IMG/VR virus record: IMGVR_UViG_3300045988_068751
DNA from: a virus
Strand: one strand, 5' to 3'
DNA length: 64,000 bases
The notes under the pieces were generated by a model. That model was given only the letters and a program-made list of their open reading frames with translations. It did no database searches and was not told the origin of the DNA. A program made the translations under genes and the position numbers. Positions 13,121 to 56,647 of the stretch are shown piece by piece (within the stretch, counting starts at the first letter, position 1; the number at the start of each line of letters is the position of its first letter).

Positions 13121-13318
13121 ATGAAAGCGAAGAAATCAAAATTAAGAACTGTATTTGGACGTAATCGGAACGATGCAATTCATGCAAATAATGGTATAAT
13201 GTATAAACTGACAAATCCTCTGTTTGAGGAAGCAGTAGGCTATTATTTGCTTGAACAAATCTCCACTTGGAGTGGGACGAGATATAAAGTACTAAAGTAC
13301 GTAGTTCAGACCGTTTGA
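13121..13318 (+). CDS. hypothetical small protein
   Basis: ORF track. Confidence 0.4.
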   Translation: MKAKKSKLRTVFGRNRNDAIHANNGIMYKLTNPLFEEAVGYYLLEQISTWSGTRYKVLKYVVQTV

Positions 13319-13447
13319 ATGTGTAAAATGAATATTATTAAGAGTATGTAGGTCTGTGATAGATATACATACTCACCTTTTATTTGAGTTGACAATAATA
13401 CTATATATTTATGGACTACATCGAAGACGATTTCACAGATGCTCTGA

Positions 13448-13666
13448 TTGACGCAATTTGTGGAGAAGATTCAAGTAATAACGATTAAAAACTTTACAAC
13501 AATGGCAGTAACAAAATACGTTATAACTAACAATCTTTCTGTATTATACAATACTAGGGAGGAAGCAGAAGCTGCATTTGAAGCAGAAGTAGCAAAGTTG
13601 GAAACAGCATTTGCAAGAGGTGCTTTTAAGAGTCTGTACACAGTAGCACCTTTCATAGTAAAATAA
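13448..13666 (+). CDS. hypothetical small protein
   Basis: ORF track; an overlapping minus-strand ORF is judged spurious. Confidence 0.35.
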   Translation: MTQFVEKIQVITIKNFTTMAVTKYVITNNLSVLYNTREEAEAAFEAEVAKLETAFARGAFKSLYTVAPFIVK

Positions 13667-13674
13667 CAATTAAA

Positions 13675-13695
13675 ACCTCATGGTGTACAGGTTAA
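13675..13695 (+). promoter_or_regulatory. conserved promoter-like motif copy 1 (ACCTCATGGTGTACAGGTTAA), 3 nt before ATG 13698
   Basis: 5-member motif family, see findings. Confidence 0.45.
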
Positions 13696-13697
13696 CC

Positions 13698-13997
13698 ATG
13701 CGCACATTTATGGTATTCGAATACATTCATCCAAGCGGAATTAAACTACGTCCGGCTAGACCTTTAACTAACAGCATATTATACATTTACAATCCAATCG
13801 GCAATGAGTGGATGCATTTGTGTAAAGAGGACATACATGGACATTTAGAGCTGTTAACATACTTCAGTAATGGCGCTACTATGTATCAAGTGATTGAAGG
13901 TCTTAAGAAGGTAGTAGAGTATTGGGGAGATGACTATCTCGTAGGTCGTAGAGACTTTTACAAAGAGATTATAGACATCTATTCCTCACACCGATAA
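13698..13997 (+). CDS. hypothetical protein (start moved to the ATG after the motif; ORF track 13680)
   Basis: ORF track; motif position. Confidence 0.5.
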   Translation: MRTFMVFEYIHPSGIKLRPARPLTNSILYIYNPIGNEWMHLCKEDIHGHLELLTYFSNGATMYQVIEGLKKVVEYWGDDYLVGRRDFYKEIIDIYSSHR

Positions 13998-18415: not shown

Positions 18416-18486
18416 AGAGGATTAGTTCAATGGTAGAAGGCTAGTTACAACTAGTAGTGGGAGTTCGAATCTCCCATCCTCTCCCA
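18416..18486 (+). tRNA. tRNA-like element with perfect T-arm (GGGAG-TTCGAAT-CTCCC), acceptor agaggat/atcctct and encoded CCA. The body is ~5 nt too short and the anticodon loop is only 6 nt (TTACAA); aberrant or pseudo-tRNA
   Basis: manual folding. Confidence 0.35.
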
Positions 18487-18565: not shown

Positions 18566-18919
18566 ATGAATCAAAACGCAGTTAATTCTTTAAGGAATGC
18601 TAAGAGGCATATTCTTATTAGCGATGTTGATAAGTTCAATAGCCATTTATTGTATTACATATTAAATGTTATATATGGAACACATGACCATATTAAATTA
18701 AATACGATACGTGAAAGACTTGAACGTGAGCTTAAATGGTCATTGGACGAGCATATTCCTGATAAGGATGTAATTAGAGAATGGCTTGACAATGATTACC
18801 CTCTTATATGCATAACAGAGTTATCGTTTGACAGTTGTATTAAACTTGCCAACGATTTCCCAGATTATGAAATTGTAGTTTATAGTTGGATGAAACATGA
18901 AGGAAACTTACCATTTTAA
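18566..18919 (+). CDS. hypothetical protein
   Basis: ORF track. Confidence 0.5.
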   Translation: MNQNAVNSLRNAKRHILISDVDKFNSHLLYYILNVIYGTHDHIKLNTIRERLERELKWSLDEHIPDKDVIREWLDNDYPLICITELSFDSCIKLANDFPDYEIVVYSWMKHEGNLPF

Positions 18920-19055
18920 ATGGAATAAAAATAACTCCTAGGCTATTAAGTCTGTAATGGGTACGCTACTCAATGTAGCACAGGAAGATACTGATAGCTT
19001 TTTTGTTCAGGTTTGAGAGACCTCCTGGCATGAGAGGATAATCATGCCGTTCTAT

Positions 19056-19574
19056 GGGCCTAGATTTGGTTTTGACAGGCGATTACAAGTTAGTAAGACG
19101 TGTAGAGTTCGTACCAACTCTTTAATAATGATACAGCAATTTAAGTGGAAACACTGAAGTAAGAATGGCAGCCTAAGCTGCTGGCTTATCTATTAATTTA
19201 GCTCTAAGTCGGGTTAATTGGAGAGACCTAGAAACAGAAGAGGTGTGGGAAGAAGCGTATAGAGCAGCCCACTTAACTTGAAAGCCAAAGGTTAGTAAAG
19301 CTGAAATCTCCGCTACCTATCTATGGGTTACAAATAGAAACGTTCTCCAACGTAAATGGAGTGGTGGAGCGACCGTTCGGTCAAGCCCAGTTTGGTAGTT
19401 TGTGAACAACTAAGTCGTAGCCCTACGAGGGAGACGTAATTGGTGAATTAACACTCGGCTTCTTAGTAAAACTACCTACATGCTGAACTCAACAGCTGAT
19501 GTAATAAAATAGAGACACACGTAATCTTATTAATGAGGGTTGTTTGGACGGCGGTTCGACTCCGCCTAGGTCCA
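19056..19574 (+). ncRNA. ssrA: putative tmRNA (SsrA-like). The 5' end GGGCCUAGAUUUGGUUUUGACAGG resembles the E. coli tmRNA 5' end. Acceptor stem GGGCCUA/UAGGUCC carries G3-U70. The 3' T-arm is GGCGG-TTCGACT-CCGCC. The candidate tag ORF reads (A)GNTEVRMAA-stop, with the stop in the loop of a gcagc-cuaa-gcugc hairpin
   Basis: manual alignment to remembered E. coli SsrA 5' region and tag/helix-5 arrangement; 519 nt is longer than typical. Confidence 0.55.
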
Positions 19575-19623
19575 CTATTATTAACGTTTAAATATCAATT
19601 TTAGCTGAATTGGAACTATTAAA

Positions 19624-19905
19624 ATGAAAGCAAGGTTATTAAAGAAACTTCGCAAAGAATCAAAGAAACTGAAATTAATAAGAGGTGAGGATTATCAATA
19701 CATAGTTACTGATAGTCCTCATGATATATTAAGACCAAAGCTTGATACTTACTACAGTGGCACATACTACTGTGGTCAAGAATTATTATTTGACGAAGAT
19801 GTAATTGCATGGTTACATCAATGCAGACGTAATTGGATTCTGTCCGAGATTAAACGAATGCGTGTACATCTGCGTAAATCTCGAATTAGAATATATAAAG
19901 AGTAA
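19624..19905 (+). CDS. hypothetical basic protein
   Basis: ORF track. Confidence 0.45.
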   Translation: MKARLLKKLRKESKKLKLIRGEDYQYIVTDSPHDILRPKLDTYYSGTYYCGQELLFDEDVIAWLHQCRRNWILSEIKRMRVHLRKSRIRIYKE

Positions 19906-21121: not shown

Positions 21122-21383
21122 ATCCACTATTGACGAATAGTGGTAGCAAAACTTGGTCTGAAGAACCAGTAGACATACTCCGGAGTGTGTCTATGACTTA
21201 AAGGCTATATCAAAGAGTTGAAACCTGTATCTATTCGAACAGTAGAAGTTCACCTGATTAAGCATCAGAAAACAGTAGTGCAAATCTACTATAGATATTG
21301 TGTAAGAGAGAATCTACACGGTCTGCATTATATAATCAGCATGCAGATAGGTCACCAAGCAAACCTCTTTCCTGCCTGGTCAA

Positions 21384-25462: not shown

Positions 25463-25501
25463 TTGATGAGTTGTGGGTAATCTCGTAAAACCCTCTGTCG
25501 C

Positions 25502-25573
25502 CCCATTACTTCAGTGGTAGAAGAGCAAATTCTAAACTTGTATGGCGTTGGTTCGAGTCCAACATGGGGCACT
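25502..25573 (+). tRNA. tRNA with CUA anticodon (amber-suppressor-type; loop UUCUAAA with U33, A37), type I, amino-acid identity unknown
   Basis: acceptor gccccat/atggggc, D cttc/gaag, anticodon stem gcaa(a)/(c)ttgt with one A-C mismatch, T-arm gttgg-TTCGAGT-ccaac. Confidence 0.7.
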
Positions 25574-31030: not shown

Positions 31031-32992
31031 ATGGAAATGACATCATTAATTATCGTTGGTGTAGTTGTACTAGTTGCAATCATCACTATCATTGGGATTC
31101 TATCCCGCTACCGTAAATGTAAATCTGACGAATTGTTGGTAGTTTATGGTAAAACAGGCTCTCACAAAGAGAAAGTTAGCGAACGCGACGCTAAAGGTAA
31201 TCTGGTTGACAGAGAAGTTGAAATTAAAACTGCCAAAGTTTATCATGGTGGTGCAGCTTTTGTATGGCCGATTATACAGGGTTATGAAGTAATGTCAATG
31301 CAGCCGATTCAATTGAATCTTGTATTGAAGAATGCTTTGTCAGCTCAAAATATTCGTGTAACTATCCCTACCACTGTAACTGTTGCTATTAGCCAAGAAC
31401 CGCTGATTATGCAGAATGCTGCTAATCGCTTACTAGGTGCTGATGATGACGTTAAAGAAAGTTTGATTTCAGATATTGTTTATGGTCAGATGAGGCTTGT
31501 TATTGCTTCGATGACTATTGAAGAGCTTAACTCTGACAGAGACAAGTTCCTAGCTCAAGCTAGAGACAATATCAATACAGAATTGAACAAACTTGGTCTT
31601 TATCTGATGAATATCAATATCAGTGACATTCAAGATGCTGCTCAATATATTGATAATCTTGGTAAGAAAGAAGAGACTAAAGCAAGAGCGCAATCACAAG
31701 CTGATATCGCAGAAGAAGAGAAGAAAGGAGCAATCCAGATAGCTCAAACTACGAGAGAGAAGGAGATTGCAATTGCAGCAGCTACTAAGGAGCAAGAAAC
31801 TATAGTGGCTGAAACTAACAGGGAGAAAGAAGTTGCTATTGCTAAGACCACTAAAGAGAAAGAAACTCAATTGGCCGAGCAGCATAAGGAGCAGCAAATT
31901 GCTGTTGCAGAGCAAAGAAAGGAACGTGAAATTGGTGTGGCTACAGCCCAAACTGAAGAAGCATCCAAAGTTGCCGAGCAAGAAGCATTAAGAGCTGCTA
32001 AGATTGCAGAGCAGCAAGCTTATGCAACTGCTAAAGAAGCAGAATTTACTGCCAAAGCTGAAGCCGCTAAGGCAGAAGCAGAAGCAGAGAAGGAAGTTCG
32101 TATGGCAGTAGCAGCACAAAATCAAGAAGCTGAAACTGTTAAAGCACAACAGGAAAAGGAAGCTAAAACTGCACAGTATGAATCAGAAGCCCGTCAAAAG
32201 GCAGCTGAAGCAGAGAAAGCAGCAGGAGTAGCTGAACAGAAAGCTACTATTGAAGTTTCCAAAGCTAAGGGAGAAGCAGAGAAAGCTAAAGCTGAAGCAG
32301 AAAGAGTAGCTGGTACTTCTAAAGTTGAAGCTCAAATGGCAGTTGCTAAAACAGAGCAAGAACGTCAGGTGGAAGTTAACGAAGCTAAAGCTAAAGCTGA
32401 AGAAGCTAAGCTTAAAGCTGAAGTAATTATACCTGCCGAGAAAGCCAAAGAGAAAGCTAAAATTGAAGCAGAAGCTGTTAAGAGTGTAGCCATTCTTGAA
32501 GCAGAAGCGGAAGCAGCTAAAATCTTGAAAGCAGCAGAAGCTAAAGCAAATGCTACTAAGATGCAACTGGAAGCAGAAGCTGAAGGTACCAAGAAGAAAC
32601 TTCTTGCTGAAGCTGAAGGTAAGAAAGCATCTTTAATGGCAGAAGCTGAACAGAAACAGGCAATGGAAATGGCTCCGGCTCTTGCAGTTGAACATATGAT
32701 TAAATCAGGTATGCATCCTGAAGCAATCGTTCAATATGCAATGACCGACAGGTGGAAAGAAGTTGCTGAAGCCAACGCTAAGGTGTTTGAACATATCCAG
32801 CTTGGTAATGTTACTGTGTATGGTGACTCCAATACTGCTGGGCAGTTCATGGCTAATATGGCTAAGAATCTTGCTCCTAGCTTGGAGATTGCCCGTAATT
32901 TGCCTATTGCAGATTCGCTTAAGCAAATAATCACTGGCAAGAAGCCAGAAGAATCGCCAGCTAAAGGTGATAATTTTCCTCCTGTAAAGTAA
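31031..32992 (+). CDS. flotillin-like SPFH/Band-7 domain protein (YqiK-like) with an N-terminal TM helix and a long Ala/Glu/Lys-rich coiled-coil
   Basis: N-terminal TM; SPFH-like region (YHGGAAFVWPIIQGYEVMSMQPIQL...); ~350-aa AEAK/KEKE coiled-coil. Confidence 0.7.
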   Translation: MEMTSLIIVGVVVLVAIITIIGILSRYRKCKSDELLVVYGKTGSHKEKVSERDAKGNLVDREVEIKTAKVYHGGAAFVWPIIQGYEVMSMQPIQLNLVLKNALSAQNIRVTIPTTVTVAISQEPLIMQNAANRLLGADDDVKESLISDIVYGQMRLVIASMTIEELNSDRDKFLAQARDNINTELNKLGLYLMNINISDIQDAAQYIDNLGKKEETKARAQSQADIAEEEKKGAIQIAQTTREKEIAIAAATKEQETIVAETNREKEVAIAKTTKEKETQLAEQHKEQQIAVAEQRKEREIGVATAQTEEASKVAEQEALRAAKIAEQQAYATAKEAEFTAKAEAAKAEAEAEKEVRMAVAAQNQEAETVKAQQEKEAKTAQYESEARQKAAEAEKAAGVAEQKATIEVSKAKGEAEKAKAEAERVAGTSKVEAQMAVAKTEQERQVEVNEAKAKAEEAKLKAEVIIPAEKAKEKAKIEAEAVKSVAILEAEAEAAKILKAAEAKANATKMQLEAEAEGTKKKLLAEAEGKKASLMAEAEQKQAMEMAPALAVEHMIKSGMHPEAIVQYAMTDRWKEVAEANAKVFEHIQLGNVTVYGDSNTAGQFMANMAKNLAPSLEIARNLPIADSLKQIITGKKPEESPAKGDNFPPVK

Positions 32993-36799: not shown

Positions 36800-37867
36800 A
36801 TGATTAGTATTGTATTAGGAACATTCTTCGGCGATTGTGGCAAAGGGCAGACAGTTCACAACTTGTGTAACAAGTACATAGGTAAGCGAGAGTCTGTGTT
36901 AGTAGTCAGGTTTAGTGGTGGACATCAAGTAGGACATACTGTAAAGCATGGAGACATGATGCACACCTTTAGTAACTTTGGCAGCGGAACCTTACTTGGA
37001 GTGCCGACGTACTGGTCCGAATACTGTACTGTAGACCCAATTACCTCTATGTTGGAGGGTGCAGACTTAGCTAAAATGGGAGTTCGTCCCATTGTTCAGT
37101 ATCACCCTCACTGCCAAGTTGTAATTCCCTTCGATGTCTATTCCCAAGTTAATAACGAAGAGAACTTACGACATGGTACTGTAGGTACAGGGTTTAAAGC
37201 TTGTTTGGACCGAGTTAAGGCAGGATACAGCTTAACAGTTGTAGATTGTATGAATCCTTACATACTGCGTGAGAAACTAAATGCCATAGTGGATAACTAT
37301 TACAACATGTCTAGTAAATATCCTTCGATAGACCTAGACAACTGGTGTAGGTTAGCACATGCTTATTTCTTACATACAGGTACGGTTAATGAAGATTGCT
37401 TGTTGAATTATGATAACCTAGTGTTTGAAGGTTCACAGGGAATATTGCTTGACCAAAGATTCGGCATAATGCCTTATTGCACTCCGTCTAATACAACTTC
37501 ACAAAACGCTTACGAGCTGTTGCGGAAAGCAGGTATACGTAAAGAAATCCAAACTTGTTATGTAACTCGTCCTTATATAACAAGGCATGGTAATGGCCCA
37601 TTTCCTTCTGGAATGTCTGTTAGGGATGTCGATGACCCTAATAATAAGTTCAACGATTTCCAGAAGACGCTTAGGGCTATTGATTTCGACAAAGACCTAT
37701 TCGCACACAGTGTACGCATTAACCGTTCATTTAAGGTTCCTTATAGGAATGAACGAACGGAGAAATTGTACGTATCACATTGGGATGAAGCATCTGACGC
37801 AGAGCGAGAAATGCTAGCAAATTTATGGATGTCGATACAGCCCATGATATTCGATAAGTTAGTTTAG
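36800..37867 (+). CDS. adenylosuccinate synthetase-family protein (PurA-like; short 355-aa form comparable to archaeal PurA / phage PurZ). Ends in TAG followed by a terminator
   Basis: IVLGTFFGDCGKGQ vs PurA GTQWGDEGKGK; RFSGGHQVGHTV vs RYQGGHNAGHTL; FEGSQGILLDQRFGIMPYCTPSNTT vs [32 protein letters not shown] vs GAGPFPTE. Confidence 0.75.
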   Translation: MISIVLGTFFGDCGKGQTVHNLCNKYIGKRESVLVVRFSGGHQVGHTVKHGDMMHTFSNFGSGTLLGVPTYWSEYCTVDPITSMLEGADLAKMGVRPIVQYHPHCQVVIPFDVYSQVNNEENLRHGTVGTGFKACLDRVKAGYSLTVVDCMNPYILREKLNAIVDNYYNMSSKYPSIDLDNWCRLAHAYFLHTGTVNEDCLLNYDNLVFEGSQGILLDQRFGIMPYCTPSNTTSQNAYELLRKAGIRKEIQTCYVTRPYITRHGNGPFPSGMSVRDVDDPNNKFNDFQKTLRAIDFDKDLFAHSVRINRSFKVPYRNERTEKLYVSHWDEASDAEREMLANLWMSIQPMIFDKLV

Positions 37868-43618: not shown

Positions 43619-44812
43619 ATGAGTGAACGAAGACTTAAACTTGGTCATAGGAAAGAGTATAAACGTAAAAGCAAGCATACTCGTAATCCAAGCTACTATC
43701 CTAGACACCTTACTAAAGTGACGCTAGCTGATTTTGATGCTGATTTCAATTTGAGAGTATCTAAAGAAGTGGCAGCGCAGAGAGGATATGGTAGAAAGGT
43801 ATTAGACAAAAGTTGTCATATAGCTTGGGACCACGGCTATGGATACGTTAAAGAATCTAGGATTGTGAAATTCATAGCCAAGTATGTAGGTAAGCCTTAT
43901 AAAGAGCTAGCCAAAGCCTGGAATGAGTGGATTAAGCCAATTAAGAATACTGACAAAACTGAATACCTAGACGACTACTTCACTGATTATAGGTGGAGAC
44001 AGGCGTTCTTTAGAGTTGATGATAACGGATTAGTACAATCTGTTGAGCAGACTCCTAGAGGTCGTCGATACAACATTAGTACTAAGCAATGGAAGGAGAA
44101 CAGGAATCATGCTTTGCCCAAGTTTGGTAAGATTGCTAAACCTCATAAAGCAGCAGACTATTATGATTACTGTTATGGATTTGCCAATTCTAATCCTGAC
44201 TCCAATGGAACAGACTCTGACTTTTATAGACCGAGGTTGCTAGGTCATTATTGGTGTATGGTTAATGGTACTCCAGTTGAGTTGCCAGTATATCATGTAC
44301 GTGATGCTCGTGACTATATAAGGTGGTGGTTAGACGGCAAGCAAGGCAGACTTCCTGGGACTAGAGAAGTAGTTAAAGTCGATACGTACCAGCAACTCTT
44401 TAGACCTGGAACTTATGCTTATGAACAAGCTGTTAAGTTTGATAACAACTGGGTTTATCTTCCGATTCCATGTAGCAAAGGAGGTTATATAGGTGAAACA
44501 TCTAAGCATTTTATGCATTTAGAGACGGAGCAGATTCCTAATCCTAGATATGCAGAAATTCAAAGTAGCTTAGATGCTCTTACTAAGAGTGTAGAAGATA
44601 TAGAAGCGGGCATAACTGTTACATTTAGTGACGGAGTAACTCCTGTAACTATGGAGTATCTTACTAACGAAATTAACAATGCTCACTACCGTCTCTCTAT
44701 GACTTCTAGGTATATAACAGTTAATCACGGCTACGGACAGTTATATCCATTAGTAAAACGAATTGATTATGAAAGAACTATTCAAAAAATGGCTAGAGAA
44801 GCGAGCATGTAG
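43619..44812 (+). CDS. hypothetical protein (397 aa), ends in TAG
   Basis: ORF track. Confidence 0.55.
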   Translation: MSERRLKLGHRKEYKRKSKHTRNPSYYPRHLTKVTLADFDADFNLRVSKEVAAQRGYGRKVLDKSCHIAWDHGYGYVKESRIVKFIAKYVGKPYKELAKAWNEWIKPIKNTDKTEYLDDYFTDYRWRQAFFRVDDNGLVQSVEQTPRGRRYNISTKQWKENRNHALPKFGKIAKPHKAADYYDYCYGFANSNPDSNGTDSDFYRPRLLGHYWCMVNGTPVELPVYHVRDARDYIRWWLDGKQGRLPGTREVVKVDTYQQLFRPGTYAYEQAVKFDNNWVYLPIPCSKGGYIGETSKHFMHLETEQIPNPRYAEIQSSLDALTKSVEDIEAGITVTFSDGVTPVTMEYLTNEINNAHYRLSMTSRYITVNHGYGQLYPLVKRIDYERTIQKMAREASM

Positions 44813-45079
44813 GCATGAATGGAGTATAATAGCTAAGACTAGCTATACTGACTGTATCAGATATCTGTTAGTATGCCTTAAGTGTGGTAAGCTTAAAAGG
44901 AAACGAGTATAGACCAGGCTGGAATCTGGGTTAAATAAAGTCCAGCGATGACAACTAAAGCAGAGTTGAGCGTATGTAATAAGACGTGCAGTTTAGCGCT
45001 GACTGTGGGGTGGTTGCAGAACACCTCTTTAGGAATGACTATCAGTGTTTGACTATTAGTATTCTAACCACTGCTCCAT

Positions 45080-55781: not shown

Positions 55782-56086
55782 ACTAACAGTATATCCTTCC
55801 TTTCTATATGAAGTACAACTATACCTCATTAGGAAGGATAGGGTAGAATGTGTAGGTTCTAAGTTCTATACTACTGATAAGCCTATTAAGGTAAGGGAAT
55901 CGCAGTTTATTAAAGTCGACGATGAGATTACATGTGCTAAGTATATTACTTGGCTAGCAGCTCCCCTAGATTATTTAATGAACAACAATTTTAAAGTGTT
56001 AGAACGTGAGAATGCTAGACAAAGACGGAAATCCAATACAGGAGAAGACAAGCGAAGGAGTTCAAACCGTAGGCGCTGAACCTACT

Positions 56087-56647
56087 ATGAAGTATACAGA
56101 GCAGGTGATTGATAAGTCTAGACGTGTTTGCCCACTATCAACTGTAATGGTTGAGATGTTGGTAAAACAGATGTCAGCCGAACTTGCCAACCATGCTCTG
56201 TATATGACCTTTGCCAATTACTTTGAAGTAGAGGGTTTACCAAAGCTAGGTATTTACTGGAGAGGTCGTGCTAGGGAAGAATATTTGCATCATTCTTGGA
56301 TATTTGAATATCTAACCACTAACGATGCTCTGTTCCAATATCCGCCTGTTCCAGCCATTAATGTTGAAATCACTGATAGAGTCATGCCCTTTGCTGCCAC
56401 AGTAGATAGGGAGATTGAGACTACTCGTGGTATTAATAAGATTGTAGACCAAGCTCAAAAAGAGAGTGATTGGGCTACATTCCAATGGTTGAATGGAGAG
56501 GATGAGGATGAAGGTATGTTAGTTAAAGAGCAAGTAGAAGAAGAATCTATTAGTCGTACTATTCTTGATATGGCTAAAGAACAGGCTACTTGGCTTCGTA
56601 AAGAGAATGCAATACTTGATTTCTATAATGGTCTAGGTCGCAAGTAA
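56087..56647 (+). CDS. ferritin-like diiron-carboxylate protein (start taken at MKYTEQ within track ORF 56006..56647)
   Basis: ELANHALYMTFANYFEVEGLPKLGIYWRGRAREEYLHHSWIFEYL resembles the ferritin helix A/B pattern with E..H. Confidence 0.45.
   Translation: MKYTEQVIDKSRRVCPLSTVMVEMLVKQMSAELANHALYMTFANYFEVEGLPKLGIYWRGRAREEYLHHSWIFEYLTTNDALFQYPPVPAINVEITDRVMPFAATVDREIETTRGINKIVDQAQKESDWATFQWLNGEDEDEGMLVKEQVEEESISRTILDMAKEQATWLRKENAILDFYNGLGRK

Follow-up and report, generated by a model that had tools for sequence, protein, structure and literature searches.

An oversized tmRNA gene family, missed by the standard tmRNA finder, in probable crAss-like phages of the human gut

Introduction

Complete transfer-messenger RNA (tmRNA) genes are known from several phages with large, tRNA-rich genomes, among them the mycobacteriophage Bxz1 group, Bacillus phage G, the huge phages and Stenotrophomonas phage Marzo (PMC4131195, PMC7162821, PMC8928761). 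Mycobacteriophage DS6A instead carries a mimic, in which a phage-borne tRNA-like domain is present without a tag reading frame (PMC11915505). The surveys of huge phages (PMC7162821) and of the gut virome that we consulted rely on the program ARAGORN, as does Pharokka, and for RefSeq viruses the curated tmRNA database drew on ARAGORN and BLAST hits (PMC11915505). Here we describe a tmRNA gene at positions 19056 to 19574 of the IMG/VR virus record IMGVR_UViG_3300045988_068751 (a stretch of 64,000 nucleotides, hereafter the window), together with its relatives in other phage contigs. An earlier note, made from the letters of the window alone, had proposed a phage-encoded tmRNA at this place. The carrier is a probable crAss-like phage of the Zeta group, and both the paper that defines this group (PMC7886860) and a 2025 paper on it (PMC12386605) make no mention of tmRNA and searched for tRNAs only, using tRNAscan-SE. 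Compared by their descriptions, the gene and its relatives resemble the known phage tmRNAs in being complete and in sitting in a large tRNA-rich genome, whereas those were found by ARAGORN or BLAST pipelines and ARAGORN either overlooks the present family or gives it a wrong tag. Phage tmRNAs as such are thus not new; what is new is an oversized family with a distinct tag in abundant gut phages, which is apparently unreported so far.

Results

A one-piece tmRNA gene in the window

Positions 19056..19574 (+) of the window are a one-piece tmRNA gene, with a mature RNA of about 519 nt before CCA addition and 87 complete homologues in phage contigs. The Rfam tmRNA covariance model RF00023 scored 85.8 bits on the window against a gathering score of 47 (E 7e-32), with a match that spans 19056-19577, takes in the entire model (positions 1-374) and is colinear with the standard gene order. 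This Infernal search was one of the checks that the earlier note had named, and along with the phage gene context and an ARAGORN call on the shortened RNA (see below) it bears out the proposal of a phage-encoded tmRNA. A permissive Rfam scan of 18900-19700 returned no intron family and nothing credible besides the tmRNA; an intron or another non-coding RNA, either of which the earlier note had held would overturn its reading, was therefore not found there. The permuted-tmRNA model RF04321 reached only 12-15 bits in the region against a gathering score of 47. The gene lies between an open reading frame (ORF) ending at 18919 and one starting at 19624, in a stretch that had been described as ORF-free, richer in G+C and 660 bp long. 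The stretch is in fact 704 bp long, while the rest of the description stands: it holds just two trivial ORFs (37 aa and 30 aa), and G+C is 0.39-0.46 within the tmRNA region versus 0.30-0.35 in the flanks.

The tRNA-like domain is complete. The 5' end reads GGGCCUAGAUUUGGUUUUGACAGGCGAUU with its first base at 19056, where it had been placed from the start, and the 5' strand of the acceptor stem, GGGCCUA (19056-19062), forms seven pairs with the 3' strand UAGGUCC (19567-19573), which is followed by the discriminator A (19574; strand and discriminator together 19567..19574, as read from the sequence). The alanine-type G3-U70 pair that the earlier note had recognised in this stem is 19058-19571. 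The T-arm GGCGG-UUCGACU-CCGCC (19550..19566), with its 7-nt loop intact, runs directly into the acceptor strand, so that the predicted order of T-arm, UAGGUCC and A is found at 19550-19574. The discriminator is followed by CUA, and CCA is not encoded, as had been noted. A D-loop-like segment, UGGUUUUGACAG, lies at 19067..19078; in a genome scan the same 12-mer after GGGN6 occurred almost only in Bacteroidota tmRNA genes, and this is the region where a contact with SmpB would be expected to fall.

Between the two halves of the tRNA-like domain, the 5' strand of helix 2 (19076..19103, tmRNA nt 21-48) pairs with its 3' strand (19517..19546, nt 462-491) in both the minimum free energy (MFE) fold and the Rfam alignment, and the pairing shows covariation. 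A putative pseudoknot 1 (PK1) follows at 19104..19134, with stem 1 formed by AGAGUU/AACUCU (nt 49-54/61-66) and stem 2 by the loop sequence GUACC with GAUAC (nt 56-60/75-79). The tag frame, GGA AAC ACU GAA GUA AGA AUG GCA GCC UAA, occupies 19147..19176 (nt 92-121), with GGA as its resume codon, and encodes GNTEVRMAA. Its end overlaps helix 5, GCAGC-CUAA-GCUGC (19168..19181), where the UAA stop falls within the 4-nt loop in the manner first described for this hairpin. An expanded structured region of 335 nt (19182..19516) then lies where PK2-PK4 would usually stand and contains conserved helices, some of them covarying.

Relatives in phage contigs

We searched IMG/VR for relatives with two exact-pattern scans, one using a T-arm pattern and the other an internal motif. 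The internal-motif scan retrieved 92 phage contigs, mostly of 93-192 kb and most from one human-gut collection. The complete copies recovered number 87, of which 72 are unique, and the unique copies are 487-601 nt long after correction of three mis-set 5' ends. In the relatives, the same phage genes flank the tmRNA on either side. G3-U70 and the discriminator A are retained in 87/87 complete copies across six acceptor sequence types, always with 7 pairs, and the acceptor stem begins GGGC in all but two. The base after the discriminator is C in 84/87, and a full CCA is encoded in 0/87.

One relative, L259, has an additional arrangement at the 3' end of its tmRNA (1875-2544): the final 25 nt of the tmRNA are repeated exactly at 2520-2544, and the interval between the tmRNA 3' end and this second copy holds an ORF of 182 aa, rich in Cys and on the opposite strand (1908-2456). 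The ORF retrieved no significant Pfam match, and the arrangement looks like a small mobile insertion that targets the tmRNA 3' end.

The tag evolves as coding sequence

The family contains 17 tag variants, of which the most frequent are GNTEVRMAA (25 unique sequences), ATYSEVRMAA (11), AEIAPVRMAA (10) and AERSD[VY]RMAA (8), with rarer ones besides. All 17 end in the pattern [R/K]-[M/L]-[A/V]-A. Synonymous changes within the tag include GGA/GGC and GCC/GCU/GCG, the Arg codon AGA is conservatively swapped for a Lys codon, either AAG or AAA, both UAA and UGA serve as stops, and the tag is always 9 or 10 whole codons long. The tag thus evolves as coding sequence: synonymous changes, conservative replacement, steps of whole codons and a fixed C-terminal pattern are what coding-type constraint would leave. 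A conserved tag is present in 72/72 unique copies, and in this the family differs from the DS6A mimic, with which it shares a phage-borne tRNA-like domain.

Compensatory changes and the expanded region

A pseudoknot-free structure of 91 pairs was evaluated on 25 homologues. In these, 98.9% of cells were paired, versus 37-47% when the 3' partners were slid, and compensatory changes occurred at 16 pairs versus 0-2 in the slid controls; 0/500 shuffles scored as high. The acceptor stem contributed compensatory changes at two pairs in this count. Over all 72 unique sequences, the T-arm was 100% paired with 4/5 pairs compensatory, helix 2 had compensatory changes at twelve pairs (7/9 in H2a and 5/10 in H2b), and helix 5 had them at 2/5 pairs, one by way of a synonymous GCA to GCU change in the tag. 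The earlier note had proposed looking for PK1-PK4 by folding. PK1 was recovered in part: stem 1 is invariant across the family, and in stem 2 of the long form (about 39/72 sequences) one pair covaries, with U57-A78 becoming C-G in 9 sequences and a single U-G intermediate. No one-to-one match to PK2-PK4 emerged.

The expanded region resolves into a hairpin (nt 128-155), a large domain (nt 156-333) closed by GGGUU/AGCCC and holding internal hairpins, a further domain (nt 339-421) closed by GGUAGUUU/AAACUACC, and a second hairpin (nt 422-448); within the nt 156-333 domain, nt 285-306 may form a compact H-type pseudoknot. Long, near-invariant and partly single-stranded blocks, such as AGUCGGGUU and AGACCUAGAAACAGAAGAGGU, lie between the highly variable modules. 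The invariance of one of these blocks over the 72 sequences is partly ascertainment, as the block was the search pattern, and it is near-invariant too in the 25 sequences of the T-arm pattern scan. A long-range pairing of the conserved tag end AGAAUG (nt 107-112) with CGUUCU (nt 286-291) was rejected: it shows no covariation, as the AAGAUG and AAAAUG variants keep CGUUCU. Apparent covariation in the helix nt 165-169/252-256 was not counted, since most of it reflects one GGAGA/UCUCC helix that is shifted in the alignment. Repeats of GGAGA, UCUCC, CUCCA and UGGAG allow competing pairings.

Inside the tmRNA, family members differ in the number of tandem copies (0, 1 or 2) of a hairpin module of 30 nt, GUUUGGAAGCGUCAGCUUCUGAACCUUUAA (alignment A1 columns 430-490; for example in L020 at 13202-13797, L035 and L037). 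The start of the module resembles the sequence after it, which suggests that it arose by tandem duplication.

ARAGORN misses the gene because of its size

ARAGORN had also been named as a check, and the earlier note had said that a failure of the models to detect the gene would refute it. In form this applies to ARAGORN: on the window the program called 28 tRNA genes (one of type undetermined) and zero tmRNA. Lowering the thresholds produced no call except, at -ps70, a spurious permuted one on the opposite strand. However, when nt 334-421 were deleted (431 nt left) or nt 156-333 were deleted (341 nt left), ARAGORN called a tmRNA with the tag GNTEVRMAA at nt 92-121. The tag (A)GNTEVRMAA that had been predicted from the letters is therefore the frame that ARAGORN itself selects once the RNA is no longer than 431 nt. 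Shorter deletions that leave at least 438 nt still gave no call, and substituting CCA did not rescue it. As internal deletion alone restores the correct call, we attribute the failure to a size limit of the program. The same holds across the family: of 45 full-length sequences passed through ARAGORN, 42 were missed and 3 were given a wrong tag, whereas internally deleted versions yielded a tmRNA call in 72/72 unique relatives. The standard tmRNA finder is blind to this oversized gut-phage family.

Likeness to Bacteroidota tmRNAs

A genome scan with GGGN6TGGTTTTGACAG matched almost exclusively Bacteroidota, and at those loci ARAGORN called 85 tmRNAs of 370-413 nt whose tags start at nt 93-99, versus nt 92 in the phage RNA. 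Tags such as GENNYALAA, GNNNFALAA, GETSYAFAA and GNTQYAMAA are found among them. The phage RNA resembles these tmRNAs in its acceptor stem with G3-U70, its discriminator A, its T-arm with a UUCGAnU loop, the D-loop-like segment, the long helix 2, a probable PK1 ahead of the resume codon, a resume context AAUU(U)AAGU before GGN, and a tag of 9-10 codons whose start is near nt 92-99 and whose end is a non-polar xAA. Its first 120 nt are colinear with Bacteroidales tmRNAs, and the resume context is AAUUUAAGU before GGA in the phage versus AAUUAAGU before GGC in Bacteroidales. Past nt 120, BLAST matches are limited to the last 36-38 nt, which share 83-92% identity with the 3' ends of Bacteroidales tmRNAs. 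CCA is not encoded in most of the sampled Bacteroidales genes either, and the CCA position of tmRNA genes in general has been described as "not always encoding CCA" (PMC11915505).

There are also differences from the Bacteroidota tmRNAs. The acceptor stem starts GGGC in all but two complete copies of the phage family and GGGG in Bacteroidota, and the phage tag has [R/K] at position -4, where the sampled Bacteroidota have Ala or Ser, and mostly Met at -3. The length of 519 nt, which the earlier note rightly called unusual, and the family range of 487-601 nt both exceed the 370-413 nt of the Bacteroidota tmRNAs, of which 85 were sampled. The surplus of 90-200 nt falls downstream of the tag and before the 3' strand of helix 2, in a stretch with larger modular domains instead of recognisable PK2-PK4. 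From stop to T-arm the phage RNA measures 373 nt and the family spans 347-453 nt, versus about 245 nt in bacteria, a figure estimated from the typical length and tag position. Two other kinds of tmRNA gene are also unusually long. In intron-containing tmRNA genes the intron sits in the T-loop (PMC11915505), whereas here the 7-nt T-loop UUCGACU is intact and no intron family scores in the region, and an intron as the cause of the length was rejected. In permuted, two-piece tmRNAs the gene order is changed circularly, the 3' half of the acceptor preceding the 5' half, whereas here it is standard. The extra length is instead spread across several modules and not contained in one insert. Taken together with the likeness at both ends, the sequence comparison makes it very probable that the phage tmRNA was derived from a Bacteroidota-type tmRNA and later enlarged.

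The genome scan also matched three short contigs (L113, L109 and L124) that are binned as Bifidobacterium breve, Alphaproteobacteria or unclassified "bacterium" metagenome-assembled genomes and that carry Bacteroidota-type tmRNAs, with the tags GEGNYALAA, GNNNYALAA and ADNNYALAA in this group. These are probably mis-binned contigs.

The carrier phage

Four replication genes have been described as conserved in crAss-like phages (PMC7886860), and the window holds three of them, for an AAA+ ATPase, an SNF2 helicase and a DnaB helicase. A GenBank contig of 117 kb, MT835470.1, overlaps window positions 1-5317 at 90-97% identity and runs 111 kb further. It encodes a portal protein, a large terminase (TerL) and major head proteins. 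The nearest relatives of this TerL, with identities of about 30%, are those of crAss-like phages, including those of Bacteroides intestinalis. The total size of the carrier, about 175 kb, and that of related contigs, which reach 192 kb, fit the 145-192 kb given for Zeta-group genomes (PMC7886860). We therefore regard the carrier as a probable crAss-like phage of the Zeta group, and in all likelihood it infects Bacteroidales of the human gut.

Downstream of the tmRNA lies an array of 27 tRNA genes; in 23358-52740 (+), 26 tRNA genes are interspersed with ORFs. One tRNA of the array is an amber suppressor (25500-25572), whose anticodon is CTA and which ARAGORN labels Pyl. The standard genetic code fits the window and MT835470.1, and reading TAG as a sense codon brings no specific gain. 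The suppressor tRNA is therefore left without an obvious recoding role, and stop-codon recoding as a rationale for the tmRNA was dropped.

Upstream element

A possible promoter, TTGAGA-18 nt-GATAAT (19013-19042, +), has 10/12 consensus matches and ends 14 nt upstream of the mature 5' end; in a consensus scan, the count of sigma-70-like sites in the region was not above chance. Overlapping it is a hairpin, GGCAUGA-GAGGAUAA-UCAUGCC (19027-19048, +), which ends 7 nt before the mature 5' end. Members of other clades (L036, L206, L209 and L205) have different short upstream hairpins, with differing arms, that end 5-7 nt before the tmRNA, and in many of the upstream hairpins the loop or the 3' arm holds a sequence resembling TATAA or GATAA. 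The hairpin element could be a promoter or a processing signal. In L210 the 3' end of a tRNA stands immediately upstream of the tmRNA, which suggests co-transcription and processing by RNase P. A second, similar GGCATGA...GAGTATAAT element is found in an intergenic position at 44805-44830 of the window. The loop motif GAGKATAA was considered as a repeated phage signal and rejected, with 8 matches in the window versus 7.8 expected.

Other elements of the window

A tRNA-like gene precedes the tmRNA at 18416-18486 (+), with an Rfam tRNA score of 49.8 bits; ARAGORN reports it as "tRNA-???" with anticodon "ac", and its anticodon arm, CUAGU-UACA-ACUAG, has an apparently shortened loop. Between ORFs, 1.5 kb downstream of the tmRNA, a full-length RAGATH-34 motif (RF03103) at 21124-21231 (+) scores 121.5 bits versus a gathering score of 60.7. 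Two genes are unusual cargo for a phage: one for a 653-aa SPFH/Band 7 protein within the tRNA array (31031-32992, +) and, past it, one for a ferritin-like protein (56006-56647, +). An adenylosuccinate-synthetase-like gene at 36800-37867 (+) matches PF00709 (E 4e-33) and has as its best PHROG phrog_1211, whose annotation is the PurZ-type enzyme known from phages with 2-aminoadenine in place of adenine; the gene may point to modified DNA.

Discussion

The features needed for alanylation, SmpB binding, resumption and termination are, by their sequence, all present in this RNA and under selection. We consider it highly likely that the gene is a functional ssrA gene of a large crAss-like phage of gut Bacteroidales, derived from a tmRNA of the Bacteroidota type and then enlarged. 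It would be transcribed together with its + strand neighbours and the tRNA array, from a promoter of its own or after an upstream tRNA. RNase P would trim the 5' end, the 3' end would be trimmed as well, and CCA would be added by the host CCA-adding enzyme. Host alanyl-tRNA synthetase (AlaRS), recognising G3-U70 and the discriminator A, would add alanine, and host SmpB would bind the tRNA-like domain. As tblastn with E. coli SmpB found no phage smpB and the Bacteroidota sequence UGGUUUUGACAG is kept, we infer the use of host SmpB, AlaRS, EF-Tu and CCA-adding enzyme. EF-Tu would bring the charged tmRNA to ribosomes stalled on broken or stop-less mRNAs, translation would resume at GGA, add A-GNTEVRMAA and end at the UAA in helix 5, and the ribosome would be freed, with the peptide marked, presumably for proteolysis. 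The benefit to the phage would be that ribosomes are kept available during infection, and demand for rescue should rise with decay of host mRNA, with read-through by the suppressor tRNA or with the cutting of RNA by host defences.

Several observations weigh against a conventional functional tmRNA. A tblastn search, with a verified E. coli SmpB as its only query, found no SmpB gene in the window, in the flanks of the relatives or in the 117-kb MT835470.1; smpB does occur in other records of the phage collection. The expanded region yielded no identifiable canonical PK2-PK4, and PK1 stem 2 was not found in the shorter version of PK1 (33/72 sequences). At -1.38 the MFE z-score is weak, as one would expect of an RNA with pseudoknots, and it is uninformative alone. 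The basic residue at tag position -4 is invariant, versus Ala or Ser in all sampled Bacteroidota tags, and the fate of tagged proteins may accordingly differ from classical degradation. Finally, the tmRNA is known here from its sequence, from which its expression, processing, charging, use of host SmpB and benefit to the phage are all extrapolated.

A different role for the same RNA is suggested by the tag and the expanded region. The phage tag could redirect tagged proteins, for instance through altered or escaped recognition by a protease or adaptor, or the extra domains could bind a factor and act as a platform or decoy, or both. Such modified rescue or dual function would account for the [R/K] at -4 in 17/17 tags where the sampled Bacteroidota have A or S, for the near-invariant blocks between variable modules, and for the maintenance of the expansion in all members. 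Yet the partner factor is purely hypothetical, the invariance of the blocks is in part a product of the search pattern, the MAA or LAA end of the tag is still a typical non-polar degron C-terminus, and tmRNA pseudoknot regions tolerate change; we consider this account unlikely, though worth keeping in mind. An inhibitor or decoy of host trans-translation that titrates SmpB or AlaRS, as has been proposed for the DS6A RNA (PMC4131195, PMC11915505), would fit the host-type SmpB-contact sequence kept in the tRNA-like domain, but a pure decoy has no need of the resume context, tag frame, stop and helix 5 that are held under coding-type constraint in 72/72 sequences, and we find this reading very improbable.

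It could also be asked whether the gene works at all, or is instead a captured and decaying host ssrA, a fragment of the attP (phage attachment site) type, or mis-assembled bacterial DNA, given that its last 36-38 nt are so close to Bacteroidales tmRNA 3' ends and that temperate elements commonly integrate at the tmRNA 3' end (PMC11915505). However, the gene is full length and no mere 3' fragment, it recurs in 92 phage contigs and shows both compensatory substitutions and conservation of the tag, it has the same phage genes on both flanks, and the adjoining ORFs show no integrase or any other Pfam or PHROG domain. No scanned bacterial genome has a close homologue past the 3' end. A non-working gene is, on this evidence, hardly credible.

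Beyond a functional, enlarged tmRNA of Bacteroidota descent, one may speculate on a remodelled form of trans-translation in which the extra domains and the basic tag residue give tagged proteins, or the RNA itself, a phage-specific fate, and which serves against ribosome stalling brought about by host defences or by the suppressor tRNA of the phage. We rate this as a rather slim chance. If true, recognition by host proteases might, for example, be escaped or redirected, or a phage factor recruited. The distinct degron ending xRMAA is amenable to direct test in Bacteroides.

The ARAGORN misses indicate a systematic annotation blind spot for long tmRNAs. The family also illustrates the extent to which a tmRNA can enlarge its pseudoknot region, reaching 487-601 nt in total without an intron, and its Bacteroidota-type tRNA-like domain offers an independent prediction of the host phylum for these uncultured phages. 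Among the viruses of the human gut crAss-like phages dominate, and in a probable large-genome lineage of this group the conserved tmRNA would add translation rescue to a gene set with some 27 tRNAs and a suppressor tRNA.

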